NCBI RefSeq assembly: GCF_058153355.1
Contig: NZ_CM177019.1
Strand: one strand, 5' to 3'
Length of the DNA: 64,000 nucleotides
Part shown: in pieces, positions 377-60,071 of the stretch
Position numbering within the stretch: the stretch's first letter is position 1
Layout of the letters: every line of letters begins with the position of its first letter
The notes under the pieces: model-generated
Seen by the model: only the letters and a program-made list of their open reading frames with translations
Databases searched by the model: none
Told to the model about the DNA's origin: nothing
Position numbers and translations under genes: made by a program

Positions 377-832
377 TCATTCGCTACGGCGGGCAATAAT
401 TTTTAGCGCAGCAATATTATGCGTTTTACGCCGTAACTGATCCAACCGTCTCATCCCTATTCGCCTGTCAGCGGCACGCAGAATATTCACTAACCCCCAT
501 TTATCGCTGGTAAATTGTTTCGTTAACAGCTCCGCTTTTGGGGTATCAATATATTCACGCAATAAATCAGAAATTGAACAAATATCCGTCAGATAAGGAT
601 ACCAGCAAGTTTCACCATGAAAATTACGCACTCCACCATTGCCTGCCATAAAGTCTTTTGGGTAATCCCAGATTACGTCTTTATCCAACGTGATCCAATA
701 ACGTGGTAAATCGGTGCTTCCACCATTTTGGCTGCGCATGGGATAACGGGTACAGTGAATTTGCAGGTTGATCGTTGGCGTCAGTAAGTCATAAATCTCC
801 CTCTGTAACTTGCTCCAGGGGCGTTGTGTCAT
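377..832 (-). CDS. Hypothetical 151-aa protein, second gene of accessory operon (possibly the intact form of the K-12 ykiA remnant)
   Basis: ORF 377..832; start overlaps stop of upstream 762-aa ORF (ATGA at 829..832), suggesting translational coupling; no recognisable motif. Confidence 0.55.
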
Positions 833-3117
833 TGTTTTTCCTCAAGCCGGTTACGCGCTTCACTGCGAATTTGCCGCGTTGCCCCGGTTTTCACTAAATC
901 ACGTAACTGCGAAAGATCGGGCTGATCGACAAATAAGATTAATGATGGATCCTCTTTTAACCACGCCGTTTTCACATCGGCAGCCAACTGTGGATTATTA
1001 ATAGCCAGCGCCCGATCCTGTGACTCAGTCAATGTCGTTAACAAAGAGGCTGGGGTATGTACATTGCGCAACGCCGTCTGCCGCAAATGATCATTGTGAC
1101 TTTTCAGCAATCCGCACCACCATTCATCATCTGATTTATCTTTTATCGTATCCAGCTCCGCAAAAATATCGCTTTCCTCATGATTCCAGCGGAGTAATCC
1201 TCTTTCACTTTGTCTACGGGTGCTATTTTTCATACTGACAACAGACAACGCCCAGTCGGAGTTAAAACGATACTGTTGATCGAGTTTGTTGATAATTCCG
1301 GAGGGTAAATCTTCATTATCAAATAGCTGGTTTCGCATCCGATAGCGGTATTCAGCAGGTAAATAAACCAGTAAATCGATGGCATTATTAAACATCTCTT
1401 CGTCAATAATACCATTATCAATCAGCGCCAGCTGTACTTCGTAGGCTTGCTCTTGATCTTCTTGCCGTTTACTCATCATTAATTTTAAGGTGTGTTGCCA
1501 TAATTGTTTCTTATACTCCAGAGGTAATAATTTATCGCGTGCCAGCTCATACCAGATGCTGGGAATGTCATGCTGATTCAGTAGATAACTAATCACTTCC
1601 TTCGAGGTCAGATAACGCATGCCGTCACGTAAGTTGTGCACATCTTCTTTTGCCAAAGTCAGTTGACGCGACTCCGGCAAAGCGACCAATAACGCCTTCA
1701 CGATATTTTTATTTTCTTTATTATCCAGATACATTTGTTCTGCGATACGTTCAACATCCTCTGTACTCAGGGTCGCTGACAGTTGGGTGATTTTTAGTTC
1801 AGTAAGCGTCCGGGCTAATGCTTGACGAACTTTCAGCGATTTATCTTTACTCAACAACACCGCTTGTTGTGCGGTTAAATCGGCTCCGGTAATTCTTTCG
1901 CGTAACTCCGGATCTTCGCTATTTATCAATTCATCAACCACTGCAGTTGGAACCAGCCAGGCGTAATCGTAATGGCTGATTAATGTCTTGCGCACACTGA
2001 GAAAAGGGCTTTGACTTAACGACACAACAATATCAGGAGAAAGATTATCCTGTCTGGCCTGCTCCAGCTGTATGCTCTCGACGGGTACAGACATTAATTT
2101 TTTATTCACTTCGGCGGATATATTGCTGTTTTTAACCAGTCCTCTGGCAACAGCTTCATCTTTAATTAATTCATCGGTAAGCAAATGCATGTGTTGAGCA
2201 GGCCAGGACTGCGCCATTGATTCACGCGTCTGGTCATCAGGGTGCTGTAACAATTGCAGCATAACAGCGGGTGACAAACGCTCTATATGTGTCAGAAAAC
2301 GTGCCATCAGTGGATCTTCATGCTTTATTTTATCCGCAGGGAAATTGTCGAGTTTACCCGCTTCAATCCACTGTAATTTCTCATTAATTTTAGAATCAGC
2401 TTTATCTCGAAAAACAGGTAACCCCTGAATTATATTATCTGCGACGCTATCATAGTCAGGATACGCATTAAAAATATTATCAGTTTCGATTTCAGTATGA
2501 TCGTAAAAGTCGGGATTCACCAGTGAATAGGCTTTCTTAATATTCTCATCCCAGCTATATCCTTCACCACTTGCATCTTCATTGATATAAAATTCAGCTT
2601 TGATGGACTCAAATTGCGTTGCTTTATCGGAAACAATAATTCCTCGTGCGCTAATTCCCTTCATCACTTCAAAATTATGATCATTATAATCAGCATAAAC
2701 TAAACCTTTTGCTGTCATCTGCCCTTTGACATACGCGAAATCATGATTAATAAAGTTATCGACAATAACATTACCTAGTACAATCAGATGACCATTACCT
2801 GACAGATAATCATCATAATCGCCGGAAATCGTTAAATTACCGTTCACCACCAGTTTATGCTGATTGCTGAAGTTAGTGGGTAATGATAGGTCACCATTAT
2901 GATAATACCAGCGGATATTATCTTTTAGCATATAAGCAGCTTCCATACTATCGTTGGTTGCCGCTTTAACCACGTTGCGCTCATCTGCCGTCATAAGATG
3001 AAAGTCAGAGGTGATAAGGTCCTCGCTACTGATCCACTCTGTGGCACATGCATTGCCAGTCATAAAAAATACGACCATACAGATGACCAATATATTAATT
3101 CTATTCATAATCTTCAC
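829..3117 (-). CDS. Hypothetical exported 762-aa protein: N-terminal signal peptide, beta-solenoid-like N-domain, long alpha-helical repeat region
   Basis: ORF 829..3117; N-terminus [25 protein letters not shown] has n/h/c signal-peptide regions; residues ~85-165 show repeated GN..V.G pattern; remainder is Leu/Glu/Lys/Gln-rich and HEAT-like; region looks AT-richer than flanking genes by eye. Confidence 0.65.
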
Positions 3118-24329: not shown

Positions 24330-25292
24330 TTATTGCACGAAGCGCGAGGTCACGTACTGGCTGTAATCATTCGCCACGGCAGGGACTTTGCCCTGATCTT
24401 TCAAAAACTGCGCGGTATCGATGATCGCTTTGTTCACCGGTCCGGTCAGTTCTGCCGTTTGCTGCTGCGGTGTCAGATAGGTATTCCCCTTCACAAGCCC
24501 CGGAACGTCACCTTCCGGCACACCGCTTAAACGCGCCAGTTTGCTGATGTTTTCCGGCTGTTTCAGCCACGCGTCTGGGTTAGCAATGTACGGTTGCTGA
24601 GCATCGATGGCGCTTTTAGCGAACGCTTTCACGACTTCAGGATGTTTCTCGGCAAAATCTTTCCGCACGACCCAGACGTCCAGTGTCGGCGCGCCCCACT
24701 GCCCGACCTGTTCAGAATCGGTCAGCACCTTGCCATCTTTTTCCAGGGCGTTAACCGCCGGTGCCCAGACATAAGCACCATCAATGTCTCCCCGCTGCCA
24801 GGCGGCGATAATCGCAGGCGGCTGCAGGTTCACAATCTCCACTTGCCCGGGTTTAATGCCCCAGTGTTTCAGCGCCGCCAGCAAGCTGTAATGCGTGGTG
24901 GAGATAAACGGTACGGCAATGCGTTTGCCAATCAGATCTTCGGGTTTGCTGATGGTTTTCTTCACCACCAGCGCTTCGGAGTTACCCAGTTTTGACGCCA
25001 GCAAGAAGACTTCAATCGGCACCTGTTGGCTGGCTGCAACCGCTAATGGGCTGGAACCGAGGTTGCCGATTTGCACGTCGCCAGAAGCCAGTGCCCGCAC
25101 GATGCTGGCCCCGCTGTCAAACTTACGCCAGTCCACGGTCGCCCCGCTCTCTTTAGCAAAGGTGTTATCGGCCTGAGCCACTTTCGCCGGTTCAGCGGAG
25201 GTTTGATAGGCCACGGTGACGTTCACCGCCTGTGCCTGAAAAGCGATGAATGCCAGTGCGGCAAGAAGTGTGTTACGCGATGAAATTGCCAT
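24330..25292 (-). CDS. tauA: Taurine-binding periplasmic protein
   Basis: 320-aa ORF with signal peptide; first gene of the tau operon. Confidence 0.9.
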   Translation of the reverse strand: MAISSRNTLLAALAFIAFQAQAVNVTVAYQTSAEPAKVAQADNTFAKESGATVDWRKFDSGASIVRALASGDVQIGNLGSSPLAVAASQQVPIEVFLLASKLGNSEALVVKKTISKPEDLIGKRIAVPFISTTHYSLLAALKHWGIKPGQVEIVNLQPPAIIAAWQRGDIDGAYVWAPAVNALEKDGKVLTDSEQVGQWGAPTLDVWVVRKDFAEKHPEVVKAFAKSAIDAQQPYIANPDAWLKQPENISKLARLSGVPEGDVPGLVKGNTYLTPQQQTAELTGPVNKAIIDTAQFLKDQGKVPAVANDYSQYVTSRFVQ

Positions 25293-52521: not shown

Positions 52522-54408
52522 TTACTCTTCCATCGCCTGGCGGATCTGATCCAACGACGCAGGATCATCAATGGTCGTCAGATCCCCCGGATCGCGTCCT
52601 TCACAAATCGCCTGGATCGTGCGGCGCAGCATTTTTCCGGATCGCGTTTTCGGTAATTGCGAGACAAACCAGACGTGCGCCGGGCGACCAAAGTTGCCAA
52701 TCTGGCTGTCCACCAGCGCCATAATCGCCTTCTCTTGCGAATGCGCCACATCACGATCTTCCAGACTGTCGCTCTCTTTCGGAATGACAAACGCCACTGC
52801 CACCTGCCCTTTCAGCGCATCTTTCACCCCAACCACCGCCACTTCGGCAACGCCCGGATGACTGGAGATACTCTCTTCAATCTCGCGCGTCCCCAGCCGA
52901 TGCCCGGCAACGTTAATTACATCGTCAGTGCGCCCGAGAATAAAGTGATAACCGTCAGCATCGCGGATGCCCCAGTCAAAGGTGGCGTACACCGGACGGG
53001 AAAATAACGACCAATACGTCTTCACAAAGCGGTCGTCATCGCCCCAGATGGTTTGAATACACCCCGGCGGCAGCGGCCCTTCCACCACTACCATCCCTTT
53101 CTCGTTGACACCGCACGGTTCGCCGGTGACTTCATTGAGCAACTGCACGTTATAGCCATACATCGGCACGCCGGGGCTTCCCAGACGTGTCGGCCTGTCG
53201 TCCAGACCGCGAGCAATCGCCATAATCGGCCAGCCGGATTCGGTCTGCCAGTAGTTGTCGATGACCGGCACATCCAGCGTATTGCTCACCAAACTGGCAG
53301 TCGGCTCATCCAGCGGTTCTCCCGCCAGATAGAGCACTTCCAGCGACGAGAGATCGTGTTTGCGAATTTCAGCGGTAGGGAATTTTTTCAGCACGCGGAT
53401 GGCGGTCGGCGCTGAGAACATCCGGCTAACCTGATATTTCTCGACGATTTTCCACCACACACCGCAGTCAGGCCAGGTCGGCAATCCTTCGTAAACAATG
53501 GTCGCCATCCCCGCCAGCAGCGGCGCGTAGACGATATACGAATGCCCAACTACCCAGCCGATATCCGACGCACAGAAGAACACCCCGCCCGCTTTACCGC
53601 CAAAAATGGTGTCCATCGAGGTCGCCAGCGCCACCGCATAACCGCCGACGTCACGCTGCACACCTTTTGGTTTGCCGGTCGTGCCGGAGGTGTAGAGAAT
53701 GCAGGAGGTTTCGTTGGATTCCAGCCACGCCACCGGCACCCGCGCGCCGATGTGTTGATGGCGCAACGACGCGAAATCGACATCCCGCCCGCTGACGCGC
53801 GCCATTTTCGCCAGCCCGCGATCCACCAGCAAAACGTGGCGCGGCTGATGCTGAGCCTGACTTATCGCATCGTCGAGCAATTTTTTATACGGAATAATTT
53901 TGCCACCGCGCGCTCCGGCATCTGCCGAGACAATCAGCACCGGTTTAGCGTCATCAATCCGCGCAGCCACGCTGTGCGAGGCAAATCCACCAAACACTAC
54001 CGAGTGAATAGCGCCAATGCGCGCGCAGGCCAGCAGGGTAATATGCGCTTCGGCAATCATCGGCATATACACCAGCACCCGATCGCCACGCTGCACGCCC
54101 AGTGAGCGCAGCATTGACGCCACCGCGTTCACTTCGTCATGCAACTGGCGAAAGGTAAAGGTGCGCTCTTCTTCTGTTTCCGAAGAGACGGCAATCAGCG
54201 CCAGCGCCTCTGGCTGTTTCTCCAGCCAGCGGTCGATAGCGTTGTGACACAAGTTGGTTCGGCCTTCACAAAACCAACGGGCAAACGGCGGATTGCTGTG
54301 ATCGAGCGTTTGCGTAAAGGGCGTCTGCCAGTCAATACGCCGGGCCTGCTCGGCCCAGAATTGCTCCGGTTCGTTAATCGAACGCTGATAAAATTCGCTA
54401 AAAGACAT
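52522..54408 (-). CDS. prpE: Propionate--CoA ligase
   Basis: 628-aa acyl-CoA synthetase ORF with YTSGTTGKPKG AMP-binding motif. Confidence 0.95.
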   Translation of the reverse strand: MSFSEFYQRSINEPEQFWAEQARRIDWQTPFTQTLDHSNPPFARWFCEGRTNLCHNAIDRWLEKQPEALALIAVSSETEEERTFTFRQLHDEVNAVASMLRSLGVQRGDRVLVYMPMIAEAHITLLACARIGAIHSVVFGGFASHSVAARIDDAKPVLIVSADAGARGGKIIPYKKLLDDAISQAQHQPRHVLLVDRGLAKMARVSGRDVDFASLRHQHIGARVPVAWLESNETSCILYTSGTTGKPKGVQRDVGGYAVALATSMDTIFGGKAGGVFFCASDIGWVVGHSYIVYAPLLAGMATIVYEGLPTWPDCGVWWKIVEKYQVSRMFSAPTAIRVLKKFPTAEIRKHDLSSLEVLYLAGEPLDEPTASLVSNTLDVPVIDNYWQTESGWPIMAIARGLDDRPTRLGSPGVPMYGYNVQLLNEVTGEPCGVNEKGMVVVEGPLPPGCIQTIWGDDDRFVKTYWSLFSRPVYATFDWGIRDADGYHFILGRTDDVINVAGHRLGTREIEESISSHPGVAEVAVVGVKDALKGQVAVAFVIPKESDSLEDRDVAHSQEKAIMALVDSQIGNFGRPAHVWFVSQLPKTRSGKMLRRTIQAICEGRDPGDLTTIDDPASLDQIRQAMEE

Positions 54409-54447: not shown

Positions 54448-55899
54448 TTAAATGACGTACAGGTCGAGATACTCATTGACCGGCATCTGTTCCAGGCGAG
54501 TTCTGTCGAGAGAAACCTCCAGAATGCGCTGCTGTTGGCGAGTCGGGAACTGGCGCGCGAGATTGATTTTGAATTTATCCACCAGCTTCGGAATGCCATC
54601 CTGACGGCGGCGAGCATGACCAATGGGGTACTCCACCACCACTTCTTCAAATCGCGTACCGTCGGTAAACTCAAGGGTTATGGCATTAGCGATGGCGCGT
54701 TTTTCCGGGTCGTGGTAGTCAGCGGTAAACGCCGGATCTTCAAAGCAATTGATCTTCTCGCGCAGGGCGTCGATGCGTTTATCTTGCGCGACGTTATCTT
54801 CGTAATCTGCTGCCGTTAAGCGCCCGAACAGCAGTGGGATCGCCACCATATACTGAATGCAGTGGTCGCGGTCAGCCGGGTTATTGAGCGGCCCTTTTTT
54901 GTCGATGATGCGAATACAGGCTTCGTGGGTGCGAATGGTCACTTTTTCGATATCTGCCGCCGTTTTGCCTGCTGCCTGCATCTGTTCATAGAGCGTCATC
55001 GCCGCTTCAACTGCCGTCTGGGAGTGGAACTCCGCCGGGAAGGAGATTTTGAACAGCACATTTTCCATGACGTAGGAACCGTACGGACGCTGGAAGCGGA
55101 ATGACTCACCTTTAAAGGAGACGTCGTAGAAACCCCACACCGGCGCGGTCAGGGCTGACGGGTAACCCATTTCGCCCGTTTTCGCCATCAGCGCCAGACG
55201 TACCGCGCGGGAAGTGGCATCGCCCGCCGCCCAGGATTTACGCGTGCCGGTGTTCGGCGCATGGCGATAGGTGCGCAGCGACTGACCGTCCACCCACGCC
55301 AGCGAAACGGCGTTGAGAATTTCCTCGCGGGTCAGGCCGAGCATTTCGGCGACCACGGCGGTGGAAGCCACTTTCACTAACAGAACGTGGTCGAGGCCAA
55401 CGCGGTTAAAGGAGTTTTCCAGCGCGATGCAGCCCTGAATTTCATGGGCTTTGATCATTCCGGTCAGCACCTGTTTCATGGTCAACGGCGCTTTGCCGCT
55501 GGCGACCGCGTTGCGTGAAAGCCAGTCTGCCGTTGCCAGAATGCCGCCGAGGTTGTCGGAAGGATGGCCCCACTCCGCCGCCAGCCAGGTATCGTTGAAA
55601 TCGAGCCAGCGGATCATCGCGCCAATGTTAAATGCCGCCTGGACGGGGTCGAGCTGGAACTGAGTTCCGGGAACGCGCACGCCGTTAGGTACGACGGTGC
55701 CAGGAACAATTGGCCCCAGCAGTTTTTTACAGGCCGGGTATTCGAGAGCTTCCAGACCGCAGCCGAGGGTGTCGAGCAGGCAGTAATGGGCGGTGTCGTA
55801 GGCCACTCTGGAGCTGATTTCGTAGTTCATGACGTAATCGACGATATCAACGATTTCACGATCAAATTCCGGACGGATGTTGTTAATTTGAGCTGACAT
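54448..55899 (-). CDS. prpD: 2-methylcitrate dehydratase
   Basis: 483-aa [26 protein letters not shown]... Confidence 0.95.
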
Positions 55900-55932: not shown

Positions 55933-57102
55933 TTACTGGCGCTTATCCAGCGCGACAAACGGTCGCTCTTCCGGTCCAACGTAATTGGCGGAAGGACGGA
56001 TAATTTTGTTGTCCTGACGTTGTTCGATAATGTGCGCCGCCCAGCCGGTGACGCGGGCGATAACAAACAGTGGCGTGAACATCTCGGTGGGAACGCCCAT
56101 CATGTTGTAGGAAACAGCGGAGAACCAGTCGAGATTGGGGAACATCTTTTTGCTCTCCCACATCACCGCTTCCAGACGATCGGCGATGTTGTACATCTTC
56201 AGCGAGCCGCCTTCCTGCGAGAGCTGCTTCGCCACACGTTTGATCACCTGATGACGCGGGTCGGCGATGGTATAAACCGGATGCCCAAAACCAATGACCA
56301 CTTCTTTGTTTTCAACCCGCTTGCGGATATCAGCTTCGGCTTCGTCCGGCGTTTCATAGCGTTGCTGGATCTCCAGCGACACTTCATTCGCCCCGCCGTG
56401 TTTCGGCCCGCGCAGTGCGCCAATCGCGCCGATAATGGCTGAATACATGTCAGAGCCGGTGCCCGCAATCACCCGGCTGGTAAAGGTGGAGGCGTTAAAC
56501 TCGTGTTCGGCGTACAGCACCAGCGAAATATGCATCGCCTTTTCCCAGCTTTGCGACGGCTTTTCGCCGTGCAGCAAATGCAGGAAGTGACCGCCGATGG
56601 AATCGTCATCGGTTTCCGGCTGGATGCGTTCGCCGTTGTGGCTGTAGTGATACCAGTAGAGAAGAATCGAGCTCAGCGACGCTAATAATTTGTCGGCAAT
56701 ATCCCGCGCGCCAGAGACGGTATGCCCCTCTTTTTCTGGCAGCGTGCAGCCGAGCGCGGAAACGCCGGTGCGCATAACATCCATCGGGTGTGACGCCGCC
56801 GGTAAGGCTTCCAGCACGGTACGCACGTTAGCCGGTAAACCGCGCAGGGCTTTCAGTTTTGTTTTGTAGGCGGCGAGTTCGTCACGGGTCGGCAGTTTGC
56901 CGTGGATCAGCAGATGCGCCACTTCTTCAAATTCGCAATGTTCCGCCAGGTCAAGAATATCGTAGCCGCGGTAATGCAGGTCATTGCCACTTTTACCCAC
57001 GGTGCAGAGCGCCGTATTGCCCGCCGGAACGCCAGAAAGTGCCACAGATTTTTTCGGTTTAATGACATGGGTACTGTTTTGCAGGATCGTTGTGTCGCTC
57101 AT
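55933..57102 (-). CDS. prpC: 2-methylcitrate synthase
   Basis: 389-aa citrate-synthase-family ORF. Confidence 0.95.
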
Positions 57103-57355: not shown

Positions 57356-58246
57356 TTATTTCGCCTGGTTACGGGCAAACAGGTCGTCGAGCTTCTCTTC
57401 GTACTGGTAGTAGTTGATGCTTTCATACAGCTCGTTGCGGGTCTGCATGGTGTCGATGACGCTTTTCTGCGTGCCTTCCTGGCGCAGGACGTTGTAGACA
57501 TGTTCAGCGGCGCGGTTCATTGCGCGGAAAGCAGAAAGGGGATACAGCGCCATTGCGACATGGGCGCTGCGTAATTCGTCGGTGGTAAACAGCGGCGTGG
57601 CACCAAATTCAGTAATGTTGGCGAGGATTGGCACCTGCACCGCATCGGCAAACTGGCGGTACATGGCGAGTTCGGTAATCGCCTCCGGGAACAGCATTTC
57701 GGCACCCGCTTCAACATAGGCCTGCGCACGCTCGATCGCCGCATCCAGCCCTTCAACCGCCAGCGCATCGGTGCGCGCCATGATCACAAAATCAGGATCG
57801 GTTTTCGCATCCACCGCCGCGCGGATCCGATCCACCATCTCTTCTTTCGAGACGATCGCTTTGTTCGGGCGATGACCGCAGCGTTTTGCTCCAACCTGAT
57901 CTTCAATATGTAAGCCCGCCGCACCGGCTTTAATCATCGATTTCACAGTGCGGGCAACGTTAAAAGCCGAAGAGCCAAAGCCGATATCCGCATCCACCAG
58001 CAGCGGCAGCGAGCAGACGTCGGTGATACGGCGAATATCAGTCAGCACATCATCAAGAGTAGAAATACCGAGATCCGGCAACCCCAGCGAACCTGCCGCC
58101 ACACCACCGCCGGAGAGATAAATCGCCTGATATCCGGCACGCTGGGCCAGCAGCGCATGGTTGGCGTTAATGGTGCCGACAATCTGCAATGGATTTTCTT
58201 TAGACAGTGCAGCGCGAAAAGCTTTACCTGGAGAGTGTAGAGACAT
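57356..58246 (-). CDS. prpB: 2-methylisocitrate lyase
   Basis: 296-aa [54 protein letters not shown]... Confidence 0.95.
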
Positions 58247-58292
58247 AGCCCATCCTTTGTTATCAACTTGTTATTTGCGTTGATAAAGACAA

Positions 58293-58308
58293 GGCAAGGG
58301 GTATGCCA
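58293..58308 (-). promoter_or_regulatory. Sigma-54 (-24/-12) promoter of prpBCDE
   Basis: Minus-strand TGGCATACCCCTTGCC (GG-N10-GC spacing) ~45 bp upstream of the prpB ATG; the divergent neighbour prpR is a sigma-54 activator. Confidence 0.65.
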
Positions 58309-58484
58309 CAATTGCCTGAATAAAATTAAATGTTTAATTTCAATTTGTTAGAGATAAAATCATGAAGTGATCCGCAAATATGCGTTTCAGTTAACGTTTC
58401 AGGCAATGTTTCACTGCGTTTCATTGCAACAATTATGAAACAAGACTAAACCCAATATTCGGTTTCTTAACTTTGCGGTGCGCT

Positions 58485-60071
58485 ATGGCACATCCACCAC
58501 GGCTGAATGACGACAAACCGGTTATCTGGACGGTATCTGTAACGCGGCTGTTCGAGCTATTTCGCGATATCAGCCTCGAGTTTGATCACCTGGCAAACAT
58601 TACCCCTATCCAGCTTGGCTTTGAAAAAGCAGTGACCTACATCCGCAAAAAACTGGCCAGCGAACGCTGCGACGCCATCATTGCCGCTGGCTCTAACGGT
58701 GCGTACCTGAAAAGCCGCCTGTCGGTACCGGTGATTCTGATAAAACCGAGTGGCTACGATGTGTTACACGCACTGGCAAAAGCCGGAAAACTCACCTCTT
58801 CTATCGGCGTTGTCACCTATCAGGAAACCATCCCGGCACTGGTAGCGTTTCAAAAAACCTTTAATTTGCGCCTCGACCAACGTAGCTACATTACCGAAGA
58901 AGACGCACGTGGGCAGATTAACGAGCTAAAAGCCAACGGCACCGAAGCGGTGGTCGGCGCGGGGCTGATTACCGATCTGGCGGAAAAAGCCGGAATGACC
59001 GGAATTTTTATCTATTCTGCCGCCACCGTGCGTCAGGCATTTAGCGATGCGCTGGATATGACGCGCATGTCGTTACGCCATAATACTCACGATGCCACCC
59101 GCAACGCCCTGCGTACTCGTTACGTGCTGGGCGATATGCTCGGTCAATCACCACAGATGGAACAGGTACGGCAGACTATTTTGCTGTATGCCCGCTCCAG
59201 TGCGGCGGTGTTGATTGAAGGGGAAACGGGGACGGGCAAAGAGCTGGCGGCCCAGGCGATTCATCGGGAATATTTTGCCCGCCACGATGCGCGACAGGGC
59301 AAAAAGTCACATCCGTTTGTTGCCGTCAACTGCGGGGCGATTGCTGAATCTCTGCTGGAAGCGGAGCTGTTTGGCTATGAGGAAGGAGCGTTTACCGGCT
59401 CGCGACGCGGAGGCCGCGCCGGGCTGTTCGAAATCGCCCACGGTGGCACGCTGTTTCTTGACGAGATAGGCGAAATGCCGCTGCCGTTGCAGACCCGGCT
59501 GCTGCGGGTGCTGGAAGAAAAAGAGGTCACCCGTGTCGGCGGGCATCAGCCTGTTCCGGTGGATGTGCGGGTTATTAGCGCCACTCACTGCAATCTCGAA
59601 GAGGATATGCAGCAAGGGCGTTTTCGCCGTGATCTGTTTTATCGACTGAGTATTTTGCGTCTGCAATTGCCGCCGCTACGCGAGCGGGTGGCGGATATTC
59701 TGCCGCTGGCGGAAAGCTTTTTGAAAGTGTCACTGGCGGCACTTACTGCGCCGTTTTCTTCCGCGTTACGTCAGGGATTACAGGCAAGTGAAACTGTGCT
59801 GTTGCGCTACGACTGGCCGGGAAATATTCGTGAACTGCGCAATATGATGGAACGACTGGCGCTATTTTTAAGTGTGGAACCAACGCCGGATTTAACGCCG
59901 CAATTTTTGCAGTTGCTACTGCCGGAACTGGCGCGCGAGTCGGCGGAAACTCCCGGTCCATGCTTACTGACGCCACAACAGGCACTGGAGAAATTTAATG
60001 GCGATAAAACAGCCGCGGCGAATTATTTAGGTATCAGCCGAACGACATTCTGGCGGCGGCTGAAAAACTGA
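58485..60071 (+). CDS. prpR: Sigma-54-dependent propionate catabolism activator
   Basis: ORF 58473..60071; 528-aa product from [17 protein letters not shown]... with AAA+ GETGTGKE Walker A and GAFTGS motif. Confidence 0.95.

Follow-up and report, generated by a model that had tools for sequence, protein, structure and literature searches.

The divergent prpR-prpBCDE control region in a 64,000-nucleotide stretch of Escherichia coli DNA: promoter, enhancer half-sites, linker and leader

The prp locus and its divergent spacer

The stretch of DNA that was analysed, referred to here as the window, is 64,000 nucleotides long and carries the prpBCDE genes on the minus strand next to a divergent prpR gene. 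The genes of the locus are as follows.

52522-54408, minus strand: prpE (ORF list and NCBIfam equivalog)
54448-55899, minus strand: prpD (ORF list and NCBIfam equivalog)
55933-57102, minus strand: prpC (ORF list and NCBIfam equivalog)
57356-58246, minus strand: prpB, methylisocitrate lyase, the first gene of prpBCDE (ORF list and NCBIfam equivalog)
58485-60071, plus strand: prpR, sigma-54 enhancer-binding protein with a PrpR_N sensor domain, an AAA+ domain and HTH_8 (NCBIfam equivalog)

The gene identities are secured by NCBIfam equivalog profiles, for which PrpB scored 561 bits against a cut-off of 353 and PrpR scored 1004 bits against a cut-off of 703, with PrpC, PrpD and PrpE likewise above their curated cut-offs. 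All of the prp genes are intact. The PrpR protein is 528 amino acids long and contains a Walker A motif (GETGTGKE at 246), a Walker B motif (FLDEIGEM) and, at residues 301-306, the GAFTGS loop that contacts sigma-54; the Pfam domains were taken from close homologs. A spacer of 238 bp separates the start codons of prpB and prpR, and this is almost certainly the divergent prpR-prpBCDE control region that has already been characterised in E. coli and Salmonella. The elements, their positions, their conservation and the gene identities come from the present analysis, while sigma-54 binding, the dependence on rpoN, prpR and ihf, the co-activation by 2-methylcitrate and the dependence on CRP are taken from published work on orthologs.

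Gene order around prp matches that of E. coli K-12, and the same synteny holds in 5,212 of the 5,426 complete E. coli genomes. The mhp-lac-cyn block of the window is 95-99% identical to most E. coli genomes and the prpR-prpB block 90-95% identical to 5,208 records, while the closest strains (2020CK-00188, R32_14_1F and EC42405) are 98-99% identical over larger blocks within window positions 30000-60100. By these identities the window comes from a divergent E. coli lineage, and its prp locus looks like a divergent allele class. Within the locus, the spacer is the same length as that of K-12 and differs from it at 7 of 238 positions, giving 97.1% identity compared with approximately 85% for the third codon positions in prpR and prpB. 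The higher identity of the spacer indicates purifying selection along its whole length.

To place the region in a wider context the spacer was compared with those of E. albertii, E. marmotae, Citrobacter werkmanii, C. koseri, C. amalonaticus, Kluyvera ascorbata, two Photorhabdus species, several Oxalobacteraceae/Burkholderiaceae, one Xanthomonas and four Salmonella-like metagenome contigs that contain the exact LT2 site. A scan of genome contigs with PrpR identified 13 of 80 loci as true PrpR, the rest being generic AAA+ matches. Scanning metagenomes with the LT2 18-mer gave mostly unrelated contigs, and the four Salmonella-like prp loci were recovered by tblastn.

At every examined PrpR locus with an adjoining prpB gene the motif TGGCA[CT]-N5-TTGC lies upstream of prpB, and GTTTCA/TGAAAC half-sites lie further upstream at all of the prpB-prpR loci, those of beta-proteobacteria included, except at the Xanthomonas locus (L014), where no exact GTTTCA/TGAAAC hexamer was found. 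The order of half-sites, linker, TGGCAY-N5-TTGC and prpB is shared by E. albertii, E. marmotae, the three Citrobacter species, Kluyvera, the Salmonella-like contigs and Photorhabdus, and by two Oxalobacteraceae/Burkholderiaceae loci; a third locus of this group (L013) has a TGAAAC copy in the prpB leader as well. At two Massilia PrpR loci (L005:1208 and L006:2501) there is no prpB in the scanned DNA upstream of prpR, and GTTTCA/TGAAAC half-sites are found just upstream of prpR itself.

The sigma-54 promoter of prpBCDE

Three elements of the spacer concern the initiation of prpBCDE transcription and translation.

58308..58293, minus strand: sigma-54 promoter PprpB, TGGCAT-N5-TTGCC (sequence and orthology)
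58282, minus strand: predicted prpBCDE start (+1), with the C of the -12 GC at 58294 and a leader of 36 nt (inference)
58253-58256, minus strand: Shine-Dalgarno sequence AGGA of prpB, 6 nt before the ATG (sequence)

The minus strand from 58308 to 58293 reads TGGCATACCCCTTGCC, corresponding to ggcaaggggtatgcca on the plus strand at 58293-58308. The GG at 58307-58306 (-25/-24) and the GC at 58295-58294 (-13/-12) are 10 nt apart, and at its 3' end the element comes to within 47 nt of the prpB ATG (58246). The original prediction had placed a GG-N10-GC element on the minus strand about 45 bp from prpB, and both its letters and, to within two nucleotides, its distance hold. The element departs from TGGCAC-N5-TTGCW only at -21, where it has T, and at -11, where it has C.

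Taken alone, the motif is weak evidence for a promoter and does not rise beyond chance. The pattern TGGCA-N6-TTGC occurs 3 times in the window against an expectation of 1.29, and at least as many are found in 13 of 100 shuffles. Both remaining matches fall inside genes, one at 3042-3056 on the plus strand inside the ORF at 829-3117 (minus strand) and one at 24916-24930 on the minus strand inside the ORF at 24330-25292 (minus strand), reading TGGCACATGCATTGC and TGGCAAACGCATTGC respectively; intragenic sigma-54 sites are known in E. coli. A weight matrix was built from 15 published E. coli sigma-54 sites with prpB left out and used to score 127,968 window positions. PprpB ranked 65th when all 17 columns were used and 3rd when only the conserved columns were used, the low rank with the full matrix being due to an atypical, C-rich spacer. 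The K-12 prpB site also has a published matrix score of 9.47, which is low for a strongly bound site (PMC4591121).

The case for PprpB comes instead from its location, from orthology and from conservation across gamma- and beta-proteobacteria. It is lifted above chance because it alone among the three matches is intergenic and aimed at a gene start, because it adjoins the gene of a sigma-54 activator and because it is orthologous to sites known to be bound. In K-12 the orthologous site, GTGGCACACCCCTTGCT, lies under a sigma-54 ChIP-seq peak (OS01) with a fold above threshold (FAT) of 17 (PMC4591121) and under a gSELEX peak obtained with reconstituted RpoN holoenzyme (PMC8743547), and sigma-54 overexpression raises prpB 2.2-fold while deletion of rpoN lowers it 2.8-fold. 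The site of Salmonella LT2, TGGCATAGCCTTTGCTTT, gave a ChIP-chip ratio of 11, and the ratio of prpBCDE expression between wild type and rpoN deletion was 45-fold when a promiscuous activator was supplied (PMC3844500). Reviews add that PrpR, sigma-54 and IHF are required for prpBCDE expression, the ihf requirement coming from Salmonella, that 2-methylcitrate is the co-activator, and that induction by propionate by way of 2-methylcitrate has been published for both Salmonella and E. coli. The Salmonella promoter studies themselves (Palacios and Escalante-Semerena 2000, 2004) are represented here through the papers that cite them. The proposal that prpB has a sigma-54 promoter activated by the adjoining PrpR thus agrees with published work on the K-12 and LT2 orthologs.

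The LT2 18-mer TGGCATAGCCTTTGCTTT is also found in unrelated metagenome contigs together with other sigma-54 activator (AAA+) proteins (L100, L105, L120, L130, L155, L170 and L171), which is expected because it is a near-consensus sigma-54 promoter.

These observations also bear on whether the -24/-12 match is accidental, with prpBCDE transcribed in this strain from another, sigma-70-type promoter. The 3 strict matches against 1.3 expected and the full-matrix rank of just 65th among 127,968 positions are what such a coincidence would look like. Set against this, the orthologous sites of K-12 and LT2 are bound by sigma-54 and expression is rpoN-dependent, the element is kept from gamma- to beta-proteobacteria beside the PrpR gene and downstream of PrpR half-sites, and a scan of the region for sigma-70-type promoters, whether for prpR or as an alternative for prpB, detected none. 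We regard a chance match as scarcely credible.

By eye, the best candidate for a prpR promoter is TTGCAA-17-TAAACC, with 7 of 12 matches and no further support. The first codons of prpR (aTGGCACatcc) include a -24-like TGGCAC at 58486-58491 with no -12 TTGC 5 nt further on, which is probably meaningless.

The transcription start was placed using the rule of Bonocora et al., in which the start lies 19 bp downstream of the motif centre; for K-12 prpB this gives 36 bp (PMC4591121), and the 2015 paper gives the EcoCyc status of the K-12 prpB start as 'predicted' (PMC4591121). We infer by the same rule that the exact start of prpBCDE in the window would be at 58282. The AGGA/GGA of the Shine-Dalgarno sequence is unchanged in eight enteric orthologs. 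The surrounding ribosome-binding region, AAGGAUGG at 58250-58258, presumably resembles the GGA-centred binding motif of CsrA; Citrobacter has GAGGACGG in its place.

Two of the seven substitutions that separate the window from K-12 fall in the promoter, a T for C at -21 (58303) and a C for T at -11 (58293). The T at -21 is also found in E. albertii, Citrobacter, Kluyvera and Salmonella, and the C at -11 is found in other E. coli such as strain MCJCHV-1. The combination of T(-21) and C(-11) is absent from the 5,426 complete E. coli genomes, in which the best matches are identical at 60 of 61 positions. We considered and rejected the idea that this is an unusual promoter allele, as it is a recombination of two common E. 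coli polymorphisms that each occur separately.

A related concern is that the C at -11, giving TTGCC and not TTGCT/A, weakens or silences the PprpB ortholog of this strain, as the sigma-54 consensus has W at this position and the T(-21)/C(-11) pair is unseen among the complete genomes. This is very unlikely, given that MCJCHV-1 and other E. coli carry the same C, that T at -21 is the normal base in E. albertii, Citrobacter, Kluyvera and Salmonella, that a published bound K-12 site (OA05, FAT 61) ends in TTGCC and that the prp genes are all intact. The variant promoter of this strain would be expected to behave like the reference.

Enhancer half-sites, linker and leader repeat

Upstream of the promoter, the spacer contains the following elements.

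58310-58372, no strand: A/T-rich linker between enhancer and promoter, approximately 22% G+C, presumed to be bent by IHF (composition)
58338-58350, plus strand: IHF-like core with one mismatch, TTTCAATTTGTTA, at -68..-56 (consensus scan)
58384-58389, 58396-58401 and 58408-58413, plus strand: predicted proximal PrpR half-sites GTTTCA, reading TGAAAC in the prpB sense, at -102..-131 (sequence)
58418-58441, plus strand: predicted distal PrpR site, inverted repeat GTTTCAT-N10-ATGAAAC, centred at -147.5 (sequence)

Five GTTTCA/TGAAAC half-sites are packed into 58 bp (58384-58441), corresponding to -102 to -159 from the predicted start. Three of these make up the proximal group, while the distal site consists of GTTTCA at 58418 on the plus strand and a second half at 58436-58441 on the minus strand. 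The hexamer GTTTCA occurs 41 times on both strands of the 64 kb, a density of roughly one per 1.5 kb, and elsewhere two copies never share a 60-bp stretch. The cluster is far beyond chance and is the strongest sequence signal of the region. A motif scan for PrpR enhancer sites upstream of the promoter had been proposed as a check of the original prediction; the five half-sites had escaped the first reading of the sequence.

The published consensus for the PrpR enhancer, as given in a review, is CGTTTCATGAAACG. Citrobacter and Salmonella have a perfect CGTTTCATGAAACG, which aligns with the middle proximal copy of the window (58396-58401). In Escherichia this contiguous 14-bp palindrome is only half-preserved, the left half being degenerate to give CATTGCCTGAAACG, and the site is flanked by extra copies of TGAAAC. 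The distal site, its spacer included, is nearly invariant in Escherichia, Citrobacter, Kluyvera and the Salmonella-like contigs, and the distance between the distal and proximal centres is constant at 28 bp in Escherichia, Citrobacter and Salmonella.

Further features were observed around the distal site. Its 10-bp spacer, AATTGTTGCA at 58425-58434, matches the half-sites in conservation across Escherichia, Citrobacter, Kluyvera and the Salmonella-like contigs, and contains TTGCAA, a possible -35 element of prpR. The sequence GTTTCATAATTGTTGCA is the fourth best match to the sigma-54 matrix in the window, though it lacks the GG. A near-perfect 18-bp palindrome, AAACCCAATATTCGGTTT, lies at 58448-58465, which is 20-37 bp upstream of the prpR ATG; it is partly kept in Citrobacter and Kluyvera, and may belong to the promoter or the leader of prpR or be an operator.

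The linker was described in the original prediction as A/T-rich sequence suitable for IHF bending. The composition bears this out, with a G+C content of 21.7% over 58310-58369, and is compatible with the ihf requirement published for Salmonella. Between genera the sequence and length of the linker are poorly conserved and its A/T-richness is kept, the linker being longer by approximately 11 bp in two Citrobacter species and by approximately 25 bp in C. koseri and Salmonella. The IHF-like core at -68..-56 is in the classical position and is present in the four Escherichia sequences only, and two more cores with one mismatch overlap at -57..-42. When the Salmonella spacer was scanned for IHF cores at one mismatch or fewer, none was found anywhere. 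Because Salmonella requires ihf and yet has no match to the core, placing IHF by consensus is unreliable.

The reviews state that CRP is needed at both promoters and that its site overlaps the PrpR operator. A scan of the spacer for TGTGA-N6-TCACA with up to 3 mismatches gave no match; the best candidate had 4 of 10 mismatches, which is background level. This result bears on the position of the CRP site and not on whether the spacer belongs to the prpR-prpBCDE control regions.

Between the promoter and prpB, the predicted leader contains three further features.

58279-58286, minus strand: upstream arm of an inverted repeat, TTATCAAC in the prpB sense, at -4..+4 (sequence)
58260-58267, minus strand: downstream arm, GTTGATAA in the prpB sense, at +16..+23 (sequence)
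58261-58273, plus strand, opposite to prpB: candidate IHF site, TATCAACTTGTTA, matching the core consensus (WATCAANNNNTTR) without a mismatch, at +10..+22 (consensus scan)

On the plus strand the inverted repeat reads TTATCAAC at 58260-58267 and GTTGATAA at 58279-58286, with 8 of 8 bases complementary and an 11-nt spacer. An inverted repeat had been reported between the promoter and the prpB start; the repeat exists, though it is not wholly between the two since its upstream arm straddles the predicted transcription start. When the spacer region was shuffled by dinucleotides, 232 of 2000 sequences (11.6%) held a perfect 8-nt repeat with arms 3-20 nt apart, so that the repeat is not significant alone. 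In eight enteric orthologs the ATCAAC/GTTGAT cores are invariant and the loop varies in sequence and in length (10-12 nt). The downstream arm falls within a block, ACAAGTTGATAACA, that is invariant in Escherichia, Citrobacter and Kluyvera. Perfect matches to the IHF core number 6 on both strands of the 64 kb against 2.5 expected, and the one in the leader is perfect in 7 of the 8 enteric orthologs, with one mismatch in C. amalonaticus. Neither the inverted repeat nor the leader IHF core is present in the Salmonella-like contigs or in Photorhabdus. We conclude that the inverted repeat is a real, lineage-restricted conserved element, probably of modest function.

One possible function is that of a 5' hairpin, TTATCAAC-N11-GTTGATAA, in the prpB mRNA that modulates stability or translation. 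The full 8-bp stem has a folding energy of -6.8 kcal/mol (z = -4.9 relative to shuffles, for the isolated 36-mer), and the invariant 6-bp arm cores with a variable loop suit a hairpin better than a rigid dimeric operator. However, the upstream arm spans the predicted start (-4 to +4), and the full hairpin would therefore not be in the mRNA: an RNA beginning at 58282 retains just 4 bp of the stem and its fold does not surpass those of shuffles (z = +0.38), and a start at least 4 nt further upstream is needed for the whole stem. Nor is there covariation, as the outer 2 bp are changed in the upstream arm of Citrobacter and Kluyvera without compensation and the arm cores never vary. The frequency of such repeats in shuffled sequence also counts against a hairpin, as does a search of 57900-58800 against Rfam at a permissive threshold, which gave no match. 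The leaders of Salmonella and Photorhabdus have no comparable repeat, and the Salmonella prp promoter is described as functional in published work. A hairpin is accordingly quite improbable.

Alternatively the block at the downstream arm could be a site for a protein, IHF being the obvious candidate, that tunes or dampens PprpB in Escherichia, Citrobacter and Kluyvera. Perfect matches to WATCAANNNNTTR are few, the block is invariant across three genera while the neighbouring spacer diverges, and the upstream arm provides another WATCAA core, weaker and facing the other way. The Salmonella system, which is without the element, is reported to have approximately 3-fold the output of the E. coli one, with basal expression also higher, but this gap could be explained by many other sequence differences. 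The position at +10..+22 is unusual for a looping IHF site at a sigma-54 promoter, the strand of the core lacks an A/T-rich tract on its 5' side, and the consensus is a poor predictor, as the ihf requirement of Salmonella illustrates. The conservation could instead come from constraints on the leader or the ribosome-binding site, and a literature search for IHF binding at prpB found no data. We consider such a protein site rather unlikely; if neither it nor a hairpin is at work, the conservation would come from constraints on the region of the start and leader. That the leader element as a whole, comprising ATCAAC/GTTGAT and the IHF core, is a lineage-specific regulatory site dampening basal or induced PprpB activity, whether through IHF, another protein or a 5' hairpin, is a doubtful proposition drawn from the sequence comparison; its hairpin variant would require a transcription start a few bases upstream of the one predicted. 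If true, it would help to account for the greater strength and leakiness of the Salmonella system relative to that of E. coli.

Mechanism and comparison with known systems

Combining the element map with the ortholog literature gives the following picture of how the region would operate. Sigma-54 RNA polymerase would form a closed complex at TGGCAT-N5-TTGCC (minus strand, 58308..58293), and PrpR would bind the GTTTCA/TGAAAC half-sites at 58384-58441, 100-160 bp upstream. PrpE and PrpC would turn propionate into 2-methylcitrate, the co-activator that would lift the inhibition exerted by the N-terminal domain of PrpR. The AAA+ ring could then reach sigma-54 through its GAFTGS loop over the IHF-bent linker (58310-58372), with ATP being used to open the promoter, and transcription of prpBCDE would proceed from near 58282 with a 36-nt leader. 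A requirement for cAMP-CRP would, in addition, lead to catabolite repression.

The PprpB/PrpR pair is already known and well characterised, a textbook sigma-54 system that is in use as a propionate-inducible expression tool and as a biosensor; what is added here is a fuller map of elements and two small comparative observations. The gain is a precise annotation of the promoter, the predicted start, the enhancer half-sites and the linker. The tuning of pPro-type vectors could draw on the degenerate, repeated half-sites that replace in Escherichia the perfect palindrome of Salmonella and Citrobacter, and on the leader element with its IHF core and inverted repeat, which is present in some genera but not in Salmonella.

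The closest known system is PprpB of E. coli K-12, the basis of the pPro vectors, which has the same locus, gene order and spacer length as the window. The two do not differ in their half-sites, linker core, inverted repeat, leader or Shine-Dalgarno sequence, and the seven substitutions between them include the two in the promoter (-21 and -11), both of which are natural E. coli polymorphisms. Salmonella LT2 resembles the window in its TGGCAT-type -24 element, its A/T-rich linker and its divergent prpR, and has a distal enhancer, GTTTCATAAATGTTGCAATGAAAC, at the same 28-bp distance from the proximal one. It differs in having a perfect CGTTTCATGAAACG where the window has CATTGCCTGAAACG and extra TGAAAC copies, in a linker that is approximately 25 bp longer, and in a leader without the inverted repeat and the IHF-core match.

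Generic promoters that combine sigma-54, an enhancer-binding protein and IHF, such as glnAp2 with NtrC and atoD with AtoC, share with the window the GG at -24 and the GC at -12 at a fixed spacing, activator sequence more than 100 bp upstream, a bendable A/T-rich segment and a GAFTGA-type loop in the AAA+ activator. At atoD (TGGCACTCCCCTTGCTAT) the spacer of the site is C-rich, much like that of PprpB. PrpR differs from the generic activators in being controlled by a 2-methylcitrate ligand through the PrpR_N domain and not by phosphorylation, and in its half-site, GTTTCA.
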